Source of the DNA: Escherichia phage vB_EcoM_G53
Reading direction: 5' to 3' (one strand)
Sequence record: MK327943.1
DNA: 64,000 nucleotides
The translations under genes were made by a program, and so were the position numbers. Positions 2,780-6,203 of the stretch are shown piece after piece. Under the pieces are notes generated by a model. The model saw only the letters and a program-made list of their open reading frames with translations, was not told the DNA's origin and ran no database searches. Numbering within the stretch: position 1 is the first letter of the stretch; every line of letters begins with the position of its first letter.

Positions 2780-3736
2780 TTATTTGAAAGGTTTTACCAT
2801 ATGGAAATTTTGTTTGAAACGTTTGACGTAATCGTCGTGTCCTAAGCTTTGGTACATACTTACTACTTTGCTATAATTTTCCCAAGCGAACTCACGGAAC
2901 CATCCTGATGTGATTGATGTACAGACCTTTTCAAGGGCCATCATAAAACTATCACGTGGATGGATTTTAAAGTCGTTAGGAATCTGTGAACGTTCAAGAG
3001 CTAATACACAAGCTTCTTCATATACACCGGCTAATTTAACCATTTCTGGTAATGATTCGAACTTCTCGCGTGATGTCATAACTTCTGAGCCTTCTTTCAT
3101 ATAAAACTTATAAGCAGGCTGGTCAGTTAGTGCAATGGCTTCATGGATAGTATCATGGTCATACGTATAGATGTCATCTTTAAAGAACGCACTTTTAGAA
3201 GTGTCAAGAACTGGGTGAGCATAATTCAAGGTTTCTTTCTGGCGTTTCAGCATAATTTCAGTAAGTTCATCGTTCAGTGTAACACCTTTACCACGAAGAT
3301 ACTGAATATGGTTCATAGTCTTTAAAAAGAATGGATTATTTTTCTTGAAACGATGAGACATCTTAATTGCAAGACATATCTCAGGAGTTGCCCAGTAAAA
3401 CCCGTTCAAACGGTCTTTAGTCAAATTTTTCTTGGCGTATTTTAAAAGGTCATAAGAAGACGTGAAATCTTCAGGAGTGAGTTCACCGACTAGTTCGCGA
3501 ACGTTAGTGAGAGCCGGAACGATGTATGCTTCAAAATGAGTTTCGCGTCCATTATGGAAGCATTTGAAAACTTGGACATCAGGGTTATCTTGGTGAACAT
3601 ATACACCCATCATTTGATTTTTGAATGCATTCCAAGAACCTTGGTCCGCAATAAAGTCCCAATCACTATTTTTAATAGCGCTAGAATCAATAAGACCGTG
3701 ATAGTGAAGTGCACGAGAACCAATAACTAACATCAT
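2780..3736 (-). CDS. hypothetical protein (318 aa); N-terminal GS...DWD is weakly nucleotidyltransferase-like
   Basis: Long ORF, SD GAGGAAAAT upstream of ATG 3736; motif IGSRALHYHG...SDWDF; no secure domain call. Confidence 0.6.
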   Translation of the reverse strand: MMLVIGSRALHYHGLIDSSAIKNSDWDFIADQGSWNAFKNQMMGVYVHQDNPDVQVFKCFHNGRETHFEAYIVPALTNVRELVGELTPEDFTSSYDLLKYAKKNLTKDRLNGFYWATPEICLAIKMSHRFKKNNPFFLKTMNHIQYLRGKGVTLNDELTEIMLKRQKETLNYAHPVLDTSKSAFFKDDIYTYDHDTIHEAIALTDQPAYKFYMKEGSEVMTSREKFESLPEMVKLAGVYEEACVLALERSQIPNDFKIHPRDSFMMALEKVCTSITSGWFREFAWENYSKVVSMYQSLGHDDYVKRFKQNFHMVKPFK

Positions 3737-3764
3737 AATATTTTCCTCGGATTAATTCATTAAC

Positions 3765-4004
3765 TTAAATTTCACGACATGCGATATTATATTCATCCCA
3801 GAGGTCATCATGTGAAGCCTCTACCAATGGAACGATTGTACCGTTTATGTCTTCATTATAAGGGCAAATTGTACAGTGCGCATCTTCGAATCGGATGCCT
3901 TTGTGTTCAGATTTTTTATAACGCATATCGAATATCTTTGCAAACTTTTCACGAGTAATGGTTTTACCAACCACTTTGGTTCCGATACTTTCGTAATAAA
4001 TCAT
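3765..4004 (-). CDS. hypothetical protein (79 aa), Cys/His-containing
   Basis: ORF track 3765..4016; ATG 4004 has GGAG 8 nt upstream while ATG 4016 has no SD; contains HCTICPYNED. Confidence 0.5.
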   Translation of the reverse strand: MIYYESIGTKVVGKTITREKFAKIFDMRYKKSEHKGIRFEDAHCTICPYNEDINGTIVPLVEASHDDLWDEYNIACREI

Positions 4005-4023
4005 TGTGGACTCCATTTGTTTT

Positions 4024-4061
4024 GATAGGACTACTATAACATAGCCCTATCTTGTTGTAAA
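4024..4061 (-). promoter_or_regulatory. early promoter (PeSL-type)
   Basis: Minus strand TTTACA (4056-4061) - 17 bp - TATAGT (4033-4038); inverted repeat ATAGGACT / AGCCCTAT brackets the -10. Confidence 0.65.
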
Positions 4062-4066
4062 CTGTT

Positions 4067-4264
4067 TTAGCAAGAATAACTAGATGATACCCAGCCTTGA
4101 ACAGTGATACTATTGTGGGATAATGAGATCGCGTCCTGGAGATTCAGACCTGCGTTATCTTCAATCCATAATGTAACTTCTTCGCGTTCTTCTGTTGCAA
4201 TTTGGAACAGGTTTTCCAGAGCAGCTACTGCCGTACGTACAGCACAATCTAATTCACGAGACAT
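4067..4264 (-). CDS. small protein, GxWVxSSxxC C-terminal family (paralog 3 of 3, 65 aa)
   Basis: Ends VQGWVSSSYSC; SD TAAGGAAAC overlapping upstream stop; third of three tandem paralogs. Confidence 0.55.
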   Translation of the reverse strand: MSRELDCAVRTAVAALENLFQIATEEREEVTLWIEDNAGLNLQDAISLSHNSITVQGWVSSSYSC

Positions 4265-4273
4265 ATTGTTTCC

Positions 4274-4546
4274 TTAGCAAGTGTGAGAAGATGCGACCCA
4301 ACCACCAGTTTCGAGGCTCAGGTTGTAGTCGTATTGGTAAACGTCAGCCCATTCAGCATAGCCGTTTTTTGTACAACGTTCAAGATCGGCTTTAAGATGT
4401 CCGGGTGAATGATAGGTTCCACCCATACCATAAGCTGGGTACAAGTTGAACGTTGTGTTTTGTTTATCAGCAATTTCTTTGGCAGCCTCAATAGCTGCAT
4501 AGATTTTTGCTACAGCTTCAGCCAGTTCGGTTTGTTCTTTAGACAT
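4274..4546 (-). CDS. small protein, GxWVxSSxxC C-terminal family (paralog 2 of 3, 90 aa)
   Basis: Ends TGGWVASSHTC; shares YGxGGTY with paralog 1; SD TAAGGAAT overlapping upstream stop. Confidence 0.55.
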   Translation of the reverse strand: MSKEQTELAEAVAKIYAAIEAAKEIADKQNTTFNLYPAYGMGGTYHSPGHLKADLERCTKNGYAEWADVYQYDYNLSLETGGWVASSHTC

Positions 4547-4555
4547 AACGATTCC

Positions 4556-4861
4556 TTAGCACAACGCAGAAGACGAAACCCAAGCACCTTCAGTAATAAC
4601 GTAACCATTACCTTCACGCTTAACATCGCCACCATTATTTTCAATTTCATCTTTCATCCACTGGGATACGATTTCACCCTTAGGATAATAAGTACGACCG
4701 CTACCATAATCACCTACAGAAAATGATACGGCATATTGGTCTGCGATCTTTGTTGCTTCTTCTTCGATACGTTCAGCTTGATTCAGAAGTTTATAAATTG
4801 CATCTGAAGCGGATTTGGCATCATTAAACTCTGGTACTTTAATTTCAATAATCTTACTCAT
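4556..4861 (-). CDS. small protein, GxWVxSSxxC C-terminal family (paralog 1 of 3, 101 aa)
   Basis: Ends EGAWVSSSALC; ATGA start/stop overlap with upstream membrane protein gene. Confidence 0.55.
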   Translation of the reverse strand: MSKIIEIKVPEFNDAKSASDAIYKLLNQAERIEEEATKIADQYAVSFSVGDYGSGRTYYPKGEIVSQWMKDEIENNGGDVKREGNGYVITEGAWVSSSALC

Positions 4862-5217
4862 TTTCTACATTCCTTAATAAAGTTTTCGATTGTTTCATTT
4901 TCACGTTTAGCTAGAAGTTCATTATAACTAATCATTTGAGAAGCGTAAATCTTTTTATTTTTCTTGTTATGGTTTATAAAATCGTAGTAAAAATAGACTA
5001 CAGTACAAAATGATGCGATGGATGCAAAGGCTTGGGTATACCGTAAGTCCTGCCATTGGTCTGTGAATCCACCAGTGTTCCCTATAAATCCTAACACAAC
5101 GCCGTCAATAAGAAATCCAACTAATCCAAAGGCAAATCCCATGCCAATACTCATAATAAAAATTAGAATGTTCTCACCAAGAGAAGGCCATACGGTTAAG
5201 AGTTGAGGCTTTTGCAT
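4858..5217 (-). CDS. small membrane protein with C-terminal ExFIxECR tail (family member 3)
   Basis: 119 aa; hydrophobic segments; ends IENFIKECRK; SD TTAAGGAAATAAG upstream. Confidence 0.55.
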   Translation of the reverse strand: MQKPQLLTVWPSLGENILIFIMSIGMGFAFGLVGFLIDGVVLGFIGNTGGFTDQWQDLRYTQAFASIASFCTVVYFYYDFINHNKKNKKIYASQMISYNELLAKRENETIENFIKECRK

Positions 5218-5591
5218 CTTATTTCCTTAACGAATTCCATAGCTTCTTCATATTCATACTTTTTAACAGCTTCATCATACTGAGCTTGGGCTTTTGCGCA
5301 CTGAACTTTCCATTCTCTTAATCGGGCTCTGTGATGACGGCCTTGGTGCCAATATCCTACCCAATTAATAGGCATTAATAAAAACGGTACAATAAGTGGT
5401 GCGACGAACATTAATGAAAATGCTGCATCAGACGATATAACTTCACTAGAATCTAAAACAGCTCCTATAATCATAAAGATTAAAAATGCTAAAGCTAAAA
5501 TAGGGCCAAATAATACTTCATTTGGGATTAATTTACGCTTGTATTCATACGCCCAGGGCTTACTTGGCATGTATAGGGTTGGCTTTGACAT
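5196..5591 (-). CDS. small membrane protein with ExFVKEIRC-type C-terminal tail (family member 4)
   Basis: ORF track 5196..5621; start moved to ATG 5591 (MSKPTLYM) just after the conserved tail codons of the upstream gene; hydrophobic segments. Confidence 0.5.
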   Translation of the reverse strand: MSKPTLYMPSKPWAYEYKRKLIPNEVLFGPILALAFLIFMIIGAVLDSSEVISSDAAFSLMFVAPLIVPFLLMPINWVGYWHQGRHHRARLREWKVQCAKAQAQYDEAVKKYEYEEAMEFVKEIRCKSLNS

Positions 5592-6162
5592 ATTCTCTAC
5601 ATTCCATAATAAATTGCTCAAGGATTAAATTGTTAGTGAAATTAGGACTAACAACCATAGTTTCATAAAGCGCATCAATAGCACTTAAAGCATCAACTCT
5701 TTTAAGCAAAGGCTTGCCTTCATACATAGTTTCAGAATCGATGATTAACGTAAAGTAATATTTTTTATTATCGACTAGAACTTCTGTATCGATATAAAAC
5801 ATATTAGACCTCAGAAGCTTATCTCTAAAGCCATAATAATCTTCAGAGCGTTCGCTGATATATTCCCATTCAGTGTTTAAACAACAAACAGACCACGTAG
5901 GAGCAACGAAATCAGTGAATCTAATATCATGGTCTGCAACTAGTTTAGCAATAGCTCCGATATCATGAATCATAATACCTGGGGCTAATAAAGATTTTCT
6001 GCTATGGCTAGCCGTTTTCTCGGTGGTCTCATAAGAAGACGACCAGTACCATTTACGTCCGGTTGCAACATATCGTAATGAATCAACTAAAGACGTAGGT
6101 GGATTTACCTTATCTCGGAACTCTTCGAACATTGAGTCAATATCATTATTTTGGTTTCGCAT
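5560..6162 (-). CDS. hypothetical protein (200 aa) with ExFIMECR motif near C-terminus
   Basis: ORF track 5560..6183 begins at TTG; ATG 6162 has a strong AAGGAG SD; contains LEQFIMECREY. Confidence 0.55.
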   Translation of the reverse strand: MRNQNNDIDSMFEEFRDKVNPPTSLVDSLRYVATGRKWYWSSSYETTEKTASHSRKSLLAPGIMIHDIGAIAKLVADHDIRFTDFVAPTWSVCCLNTEWEYISERSEDYYGFRDKLLRSNMFYIDTEVLVDNKKYYFTLIIDSETMYEGKPLLKRVDALSAIDALYETMVVSPNFTNNLILEQFIMECREYVKANPIHAK

Positions 6163-6181
6163 GTTAACTCCTTTATTATCC

Positions 6182-6203
6182 AAAAGGAGGACCGGAGTCC
6201 TCC
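6182..6203 (-). terminator. hairpin plus short U-run (weak terminator or attenuator) between operon genes
   Basis: GGAGGAC-CGGA-GTCCTCC perfect 7-bp stem followed by UUUU on the minus strand; sits in the leader of the next gene. Confidence 0.45.

Follow-up and report, generated by a model that had tools for sequence, protein, structure and literature searches.

The three small genes that lie between positions 4,067 and 4,861 of the phage DNA studied here belong to a large family, restricted to phages, of small acidic proteins with a common Cys-terminated tail. Genes of this family are nearly always found directly or closely upstream of a gene for a predicted nucleotidyltransferase, on the same strand, and we infer that the tailed genes and the enzyme gene form one functional two-part phage module. 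In the reading that we prefer, and to which we would assign a probability of roughly 40%, the small proteins are clients of the enzyme, which would recognise their tail and use its serines as nucleotidylylation acceptors.

Three tandem paralogs in an RB69-type phage

The window, by which we mean the whole stretch of 64,000 nucleotides of Escherichia phage vB_EcoM_G53 (MK327943.1) that was analysed, is DNA of a Mosigvirus, an RB69-type, T4-like phage. Bases 3700-5300 share 99.8% identity with Escherichia phage mobillu, and 134 phage records span at least 80% of this stretch. The region of the tailed genes sits between the lysozyme/NudE genes and the tRNA cluster. All genes discussed here are 'hypothetical' in the deposited genomes. 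A 'sulfurtransferase' label near the locus in phage JK36 was rejected as a lead, because it had been given to an e.4-like membrane protein that is hypothetical in the other records.

A preliminary description, made from the sequence alone, had placed three tandem genes with a shared C-terminal motif in this region, and the open reading frames are found on the minus strand exactly there. FAM1 (4556-4861, minus strand; 101 aa, pI 4.6) is the equivalent of RB69ORF139c and falls into phrog_899 at E 1.3e-22. Its product ends AWVSSSALC, with the tail W94-C101 (WVSSSALC) encoded at 4559-4582, and is of the YGSGRTY subtype, this motif (4688-4708, minus strand) covering nearly invariant alignment columns. 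FAM2 (4274-4546, minus strand; 90 aa, pI 5.0) corresponds to RB69ORF137c, which coincides with the FAM2 tblastn match, and is also placed in phrog_899 (E 5e-19). It ends GWVASSHTC, the tail W83-C90 (WVASSHTC) being encoded at 4277-4300, and belongs to the YGMGGTY subtype, with the alignment-invariant motif at 4412-4432 on the minus strand. The shortest of the three, FAM3 (4067-4264, minus strand; 65 aa, pI 4.2), is equivalent to RB69ORF136c, belongs to phrog_4882 (E 7.7e-37) and ends GWVSSSYSC; its tail W58-C65 (WVSSSYSC) is encoded at 4070-4093. All three proteins thus carry the tail that had been described, and YGxGxTY is present in FAM1 and FAM2. Among 400 ORFs of at least 35 aa in the window, a regular expression for the tail matches FAM1, FAM2 and FAM3 alone. 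Each of their ATG codons is preceded, at 5-8 nt, by a TAAGGA Shine-Dalgarno sequence that overlaps the preceding stop codon, and the spacers between FAM1 and FAM2 and between FAM2 and FAM3 are both 9 nt long.

Pairwise BLASTP comparisons of the three proteins (E = 2e-4, 1e-3 and 3e-4) bear out their paralogy. The codons of the tail differ at synonymous sites, and since only 17-20 of 33 nt are identical between any of the three, the tail is, as had been proposed, conserved at the protein level and not a DNA repeat. Tandem duplication followed by diversification had also been suggested. The proteins are true paralogs, but a recent local duplication does not fit the data, as identity among FAM1, FAM2 and FAM3 is only about 30%, while their orthologs are 51-63% identical (62% for FAM1 in L044, 51-54% for FAM2 and 54-63% for FAM3). 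Nor is a progressive shrinkage from 101 over 90 to 65 aa supported, because in other T4-like genera each gene is matched by a separate ortholog of similar length. Besides these orthologs, the other genera harbor two further tailed types, and related phages have up to 5-6 copies. By these comparisons the three paralogs are old and individually maintained, which argues for separate functions of their bodies rather than for a recent duplication with shrinkage.

The tailed genes are not, as was first thought, the last genes of the operon. They are followed on the same strand by a gene for an 83 aa protein (3765-4016, minus strand; phrog_3723) without the tail and then by the gene for the partner enzyme of 318 aa (c0; 2780-3736, minus strand), which carries the Pfam domains DUF7277 and DUF7275. 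Conservation of the 83 aa gene is limited to T4-like relatives, and its cluster occurs in 8 loci. A promoter-like site (4921-4949, minus strand; TTTACG-17-TATAAT, a consensus match only) is located about 60 nt upstream of FAM1, inside an e.3-like gene, and phage SA79RD has an annotated T4-type middle promoter at the equivalent site. A hairpin at 4024-4051 on the minus strand (RNA fold with an 11 bp stem, dG -16 kcal/mol) separates FAM3 from the 83 aa and enzyme genes. In SA79RD it carries a terminator annotation, but as no T-run follows the stem, such a role is uncertain. The hairpin is overlapped by a second promoter-like site (4033-4061, minus strand), again a consensus match only. Since both elements separate FAM3 from the enzyme gene, the small genes may possibly be expressed above the level of the enzyme.

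A large family of small acidic proteins with a Cys-terminated tail

An exhaustive profile search for tail-bearing homologs returned 532 family representatives (clusters at 50% identity, E<=1e-3), and nearly all matches reach the last residue. The concern that no homologs with the motif might exist elsewhere is therefore without ground. Word-indexed searches recovered a few relatives, in other T4-like phages, in Aeromonas phage CC2 and in contigs of 360-370 kb. The terminal residue is a cysteine in 155 of the 168 family proteins that were retrieved, and 159 of the 168 have the pattern W-x-x-S-[ST]-x-x-C at their end, followed by no more than one residue. A YGxGGTY-like motif was found in 143 of these 159 tail-bearing members, and in 95 of them the terminal cysteine is the sole cysteine. 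The proteins are acidic, with a median pI of 4.5, and have a median length of 89 aa; nearly all of the 532 representatives are between 67 and 149 aa long, and members of 52-65 aa also occur.

A common build can be recognised. The N-terminal part contains a helix that ends ...A-x-x-I-A-[DE]-x-x-G and is usually followed by F-x-F....YGMGGTYYP; in the C-terminal part, a variable acidic linker in which D, E, W and S abound leads to the tail. The constant core of the tail is W-x-x-S-S, then 0-3 residues, then the terminal cysteine, which is rarely the last residue but one; the spacing between the serine pair and the cysteine takes values of 0, 1, 2 or 3 residues across the family. FAM3 has the N-terminal helix and the tail and lacks the YGxGGTY motif. 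Because it still joins the main family cluster once the tail has been trimmed, the F-x-F...YG-x-GG-T-Y segment appears to mark subtypes, not the family.

Known families gave little help in assigning a function. Scans of the small proteins against Pfam, NCBIfam and PADLOC returned nothing significant, and a profile search of the PDB sequences gave matches at chance level only. A Foldseek search of BFVD with a small protein found uncharacterised family members only. The PHROG families 899 and 4882, to which the small proteins belong, are labelled 'unknown function'.

The AF2 model of FAM1 (pLDDT 90) places the tail, with good confidence (pLDDT about 88), inside the folded domain, as a strand (93-96) and a short helix (97-100). 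Some family members contain a second, internal W-x-x-S-S-C, and W-x-S-S half-repeats are frequent in the linker upstream of the tail. These observations have to be weighed against the client reading, because an ordered tail could be a structural element and because the variable spacing and the internal W-x-x-S-S-C units show that the cysteine is not strictly a feature of the chain end. They would fit a tail that acts independently of the enzyme, either as a metal-binding or dimerisation element, through the pairing of lone thiols or through a small fold of packed W-x-x-S-S-C units, or as a signal for a conserved host machine such as a protease, a chaperone or a sulfur-transfer enzyme; in that case the neighboring enzyme would only share a pathway with the small proteins. 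That most members have a single cysteine, free for intermolecular chemistry, is in line with this. We nevertheless consider such an explanation quite improbable. A purely structural motif should not remain invariant where the rest of the fold changes or, in the members of 52-65 aa, has disappeared, and a host reader would have to be universal, given hosts that range from enterobacteria to Myxococcus. Above all, the explanation does not account for the tight, directional linkage of the tail to one enzyme gene.

The tailed genes are linked to one enzyme gene

This linkage was analysed from both sides. Starting from a small protein we fetched 37 viral loci, each with 1-3 tandem tailed copies, and together with the window and two annotated relatives these make up a set of 40 loci. 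Clustering of the neighboring ORFs revealed a gene for an enzyme of about 300 aa downstream and on the same strand in 37 of the 40, always 0-3 small genes away; the remaining three are truncated contigs with too little downstream sequence. In the reverse test, 80 loci were fetched via the enzyme alone, and tailed small ORFs were counted within 2.5 kb upstream of the enzyme gene. Here 74 of the 80 loci have 1-6 tailed ORFs upstream on the same strand, and a further one has the variant tail W-D-S-S-T-C, which brings the count to 75/80. Not a single tailed ORF was found on the opposite strand or downstream in these 80 loci. The number of tailed copies per locus is 1 in 10 loci, 2 in 26, 3 in 12, 4 in 6, 5 in 20 and 6 in one. 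The median gap between the tailed array and the enzyme gene is 350 bp; in the window, the distance from the FAM3 stop (4067) to the enzyme start (3736) is 331 nt on the same strand.

The tail occurs far beyond chance. Its regular expression matches 198 of 1539 small plus-strand ORFs that end before position 5001, which is the start of the enzyme gene in nearly all loci fetched, and none of 4886 ORFs of the other classes. The same picture emerges when the regular expression is left aside, as 33% of the same-strand ORFs within 2.5 kb upstream end in cysteine, compared with only 2.8-3.8% of the downstream and opposite-strand ORFs. About 6% of the enzyme loci have no tailed ORF within 2.5 kb, and this we count against the client reading.

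No other universal neighbor was found among the loci; genes for Pnkp-like proteins, a metallophosphatase, a helicase and UvsX are lineage-specific. Polynucleotide kinase/phosphatase or RNA ligase genes occur near the module in a few loci. A link to tRNA genes was considered and rejected as a general feature, since no more than 8 of 52 diverse loci have such genes within 5 kb. The preliminary description had offered, as speculation, that the tail might be a modification or recognition site. The near-obligatory linkage to a gene with the nucleotidyltransferase fold lends this strong circumstantial support.

The partner enzyme is a predicted polymerase-beta-type nucleotidyltransferase

The enzyme consists of a nucleotidyltransferase core (DUF7277, residues 2-101) and a helical domain (DUF7275, residues 120-305). 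Conservation is much stronger than in the small proteins: over their whole range its homologs are 37-48% identical, and about 60 positions are invariant. Among 32-36 diverse homologs the residues G6, S7, D25, D27 and E69 are invariant. G6-S7, D25-x-D27 and E69 correspond to the hG[GS] motif, the D-x-D motif and the third carboxylate of polymerase-beta nucleotidyltransferases, and in the AF2 model (pLDDT 90.6) the catalytic residues map, as expected, to strand 1 / helix 1, strand 2 and the strand 64-73. Judged by this triad and the predicted fold, the enzyme would be a polymerase-beta-type nucleotidyltransferase of the MenT / ANT / LnuA kind. The model has the bi-lobed fold of MenT.

The helical domain contains the invariant polar residues K125, H128, R129, K139, T140, R165, H174, D193, H194, D195, H198, E240, E241, E248, R249, K270, C272 and R281. 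The C-terminal motifs of MenT proteins comprise motif III, with a lysine for base stacking, and motif IV, with an aspartate (PMC7450476), and the invariant K125-x-x-H128-R129 is a plausible candidate for motif III. C272 is present in 81/81 tail-associated enzymes and replaced by V or I in three distant relatives without tailed neighbors, a pattern that, coming from three phylogenetically clustered cases, is at most a weak hint of thiol chemistry between the partners. Covariation of C243 with the Cys tail was rejected, as C243 is variable. At E<=1, Pfam returned only DUF7275 and DUF7277, with no match to DUF1814, PF10127 or the CCA enzymes; PADLOC gave no match for a MenT / AbiEii-type assignment, the PDB sequence search nothing and NCBIfam only a sub-threshold HisJ match.

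The best structural match of the enzyme is MenT1. This toxin modifies tRNA and is inhibited by a small protein encoded upstream of it (PMC10435456), which speaks against the client reading. The pair MenA1-MenT1 (Rv0078B-Rv0078A) is a toxin-antitoxin system of Mycobacterium tuberculosis, and it likewise has a short helical partner encoded upstream (PMC7450476, PMC10435456). By analogy, the small acidic proteins could restrain or tune a MenT-like enzyme that transfers nucleotides to RNA or tRNA 3' ends and serves the phage to shut off the host, to repair tRNA or to counter defence. The helix would make the contact with the enzyme, and the tail would block its acceptor pocket, a pseudo-substrate resembling a nucleotide or an RNA end, with the indole in place of the base, the two hydroxyls in place of the ribose and the carboxylate in place of the phosphate. 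This is the main rival of the client reading, but despite the resemblance to MenT1 and the similar arrangement of MenA1-MenT1 we hold it to be unlikely. One inhibitor should be enough for one enzyme, but in most phages 2-6 paralogs persist that are old and separately conserved. The C-terminal part of MenA1 is dispensable (PMC10435456), whereas the C-terminus is the most conserved part of the proteins described here. Furthermore, some enzyme genes have no tailed gene nearby, the enzyme has no DUF1814 match in Pfam, and the module is essentially absent from bacterial genomes, the usual habitat of toxin-antitoxin pairs.

The tail as a proposed handle for the enzyme

We rank the client reading above that of an inhibitor, because arrays of old, individually conserved paralogs fit a set of effectors that share a tag. 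Arrays of 2-6 copies are the rule, and the invariant hydroxyls of the serine pair are placed at the chain end, and we count both in its favor. The tail is invariant while the proteins that carry it diverge, it is tied to one highly conserved enzyme across unrelated hosts, and its conserved parts are two hydroxyls, an aromatic ring and a chain end with thiol and carboxylate; these three features argue for a direct recognition of the tail by the enzyme. Moreover, as the module spans diverse phages, the partner of the tail must be one that is kept in spite of very different hosts, as the enzyme is.

In our model the tail W-x-x-S-S-(0-3)-Cys would be the handle by which the enzyme recognises the small proteins. 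It could dock in the acceptor pocket, where related enzymes hold an RNA 3' end or the hydroxyl of a drug, and the tryptophan might stack there as a base would. The thiol and the carboxylate of the terminal cysteine would anchor the chain end, possibly at a metal or at Cys272 of the enzyme, and one of the two invariant serines would receive a nucleotide monophosphate. This would make the tail a modification tag, and the divergent, separately maintained bodies, three of them in this phage, would serve as effectors that act on different targets during infection. A point against the model is that the polymerase-beta-fold enzymes known to modify proteins (GlnE, GlnD and MntA) act on tyrosine and not on serine. 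The more far-reaching proposal of a protein-tagging system of large virulent phages, in which a MenT/ANT-like enzyme would covalently modify a portable tag, at Ser-Ser or at the cysteine and by nucleotidylylation or some other chemistry that depends on nucleotides, on a diversifying repertoire of small acidic effectors, seems rather doubtful to us.

Distribution and significance of the module

The module is confined to phages. The enzyme is encoded in 733 of 50,697 deposited phage records from many host genera, and its family, clustered at 90% identity, forms 2117 clusters. Carriers of the module occur among T4-like, rV5/phAPEC8-like, jumbo and Myxococcus phages, and their hosts include E. coli, Klebsiella, Acinetobacter, Pseudomonas and Aeromonas. 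A search of 185,579 bacterial species genomes gave 5 matches, all of them on phage-like MAG contigs, and on this basis we rejected a bacterial origin and a toxin-antitoxin habitat.

A literature search with the ORF names, the DUF and PHROG numbers and descriptive terms found no paper on these genes within its incomplete coverage. A review of jumbo-phage nucleotidyltransferases names RlaP and CCA-adding enzymes and not the DUF7277-DUF7275 family. Under the client as well as the inhibitor reading, the orphan families PHROG 899, 4882 and 2141, DUF7275 and DUF7277 would become one functional unit. If the tag were shown to be modified, this would be a new kind of system, and a tag pathway would amount to a post-translational modification of phage proteins not known before, with the tag as an address label. 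Nucleotidylylation of the small proteins would mean a new protein modification and would add a new class to the substrates of polymerase-beta-fold enzymes. Should the small proteins instead be inhibitors, lytic phages would use a regulated MenT-like enzyme, and this would bear on host shut-off and on tRNA-centred defence and counter-defence. Several of the carrier phages are in use in phage therapy, and every component of the module is currently annotated 'hypothetical'. A strictly conserved tail at the protein end that is tied to one enzyme offers an unusually clean and testable handle.

Comparison with known systems

A nucleotidyltransferase with a dedicated small-protein partner is an already known kind of arrangement, and the module shares single features with several systems. 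RlaP (PF10127) and the CCA-adding enzymes have the polymerase-beta fold and are common in large virulent phages; they differ in having no tailed small-protein partners. ANT(2'')-Ia and LnuA use small-molecule substrates, likewise have no dedicated small-protein partner and share only 6-9% identity with the enzyme.

The RiPP clusters, in particular those for lanthipeptides, resemble the locus in that several short paralogous genes, which would encode the substrates, lie next to a single enzyme gene, and in the motif rich in serine and cysteine. One could therefore imagine that nucleotidylylation of a tail serine is followed by elimination to dehydroalanine and by addition of the cysteine, to give a lanthionine-type ring, or that the cysteine is decarboxylated (AviCys). 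The distance between Ser(-3) and Cys(0) in the commonest tail is that of small lanthionine and AviCys rings. We judge such a cross-link to be very improbable, because the spacing of serine and cysteine varies between 0 and 3 and the polarity is reversed, with an invariant modified end and a variable remainder. Further, the products are predicted to be folded domains of 65-150 aa and not leader-core peptides. RiPP enzyme families (LanB/LanM/LanKC/LanC, LanD-type) were found neither in the window genes scanned nor in the recurrent neighbor clusters inspected, and the module has no conserved neighbor of the LanB/LanM/LanC/LanD, radical SAM or YcaO type.

The MNT-HEPN (MntA-HepT) and GlnD/GlnE systems share with the client reading a minimal nucleotidyltransferase whose gene stands beside that of the protein that it would modify covalently, and a side-chain hydroxyl as the acceptor, as we propose here. 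The enzymes of these systems modify a tyrosine within a folded partner. The small proteins of the phage module differ in lacking the HEPN motif Rx4-6H, which is absent from FAM1, FAM2 and FAM3 and matched by such a string in only 9 of the 159 family members, and their candidate acceptors would be the serines of a C-terminal tag.

Variants of the Cys tail and a second C-terminal motif

The unit W-x-x-S-S-C that closes the small acidic proteins of the module is not confined to the chain end. Other phage loci encode a subtype, absent from the window, of about 75 aa that has the C-terminus ...IW-x-[PSA]-SSC and additionally carries an internal second unit, DW-x-x-SSC-YGE (L044, 4105-4329; L053, 3693-3923; L064, 3918-4142; L071, 4730-4957, positions local to each locus). 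The unit therefore acts as a module that can be repeated, and is more than a mere end of the chain.

In several deposited or assembled genomes the tail of FAM1 or FAM2 has been lost through a frameshift. These cases are P0002 (RB69ORF139c, 71 aa), P0018 (mar005P1, 75 aa), P0006, P0019 and the hit H31. The RB69 reference ORF139c ends in ...SQWYEK without a Cys tail, and in the mar005P1 records the tblastn match is split in two pieces. The frameshifts could be sequencing errors or reflect natural loss.

The gene string has a second end motif that is unrelated to the Cys tail. Four neighboring e.2/e.3-like proteins, dissimilar elsewhere, share [FIV][IV]-x-E-C-[RK] at or near the C-terminus; all are encoded on the minus strand, at 968-1447, 2135-2440, 4858-5217 and 5560-6183, and the instances in the window read NFIKECRGK, RFITECRNLR, NFIKECRK and QFIMECREY. 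The protein at 5196-5621, with the variant FVKEIRCK, is a possible fifth bearer of this type of ending. At least three of the four look like membrane proteins.

Neighbors of the module and distant relatives of the enzyme

Two further minus-strand genes recur around the module. Downstream of it lies a conserved 228 aa protein (1447-2133), for which Pfam, NCBIfam and PADLOC gave no match and whose cluster, c4, spans 11 loci, all from T4-like relatives. The second gene, at 735-986, encodes an acidic protein of 83 aa, cluster c5, which is also found in L017, L022, L032-L034 and L039; unrelated jumbo-phage contigs have it immediately upstream of the tailed genes, and L033 has it directly downstream of the enzyme gene. 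The c5 protein may be a third, loosely associated component of the module.

In jumbo-phage loci the module also has neighbors on both sides: some 4 kb upstream, a polynucleotide kinase/phosphatase-like gene (P-loop and HAD motifs), and one to two genes downstream, a gene for a calcineurin-type metallophosphatase (L017, L022, L032, L034 and L039, on contigs of 350-390 kb; L010 and L013). In Streptomyces phage Wakanda (L126), the enzyme relative has a polynucleotide kinase gene on one side and an RNA ligase gene on the other. Such neighbors may hint at RNA-end metabolism, as a lineage-specific feature only.

The remote relatives of the enzyme in L128, L125 and L126 are shorter (250-263 aa; DUF7275, E 1e-56 to 1e-65), and no Cys-tailed genes stand beside them. 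They adjoin another acidic family of about 97 aa, represented by Vibrio phage KVP40.0036 (L128, 3360-3656), Gordonia phage ClubL gp17 (L125, 4600-4890) and Wakanda gp196 (L126, 4594-4893), with 28% identity to the KVP40 member and the common pattern ...GR-x-[FY]-[KR]..GY-x-DS[YW]-x-G...EV-x-P.... Because even these tail-less relatives have an acidic neighbor, a small acidic partner seems to be a general companion of the enzyme superfamily.
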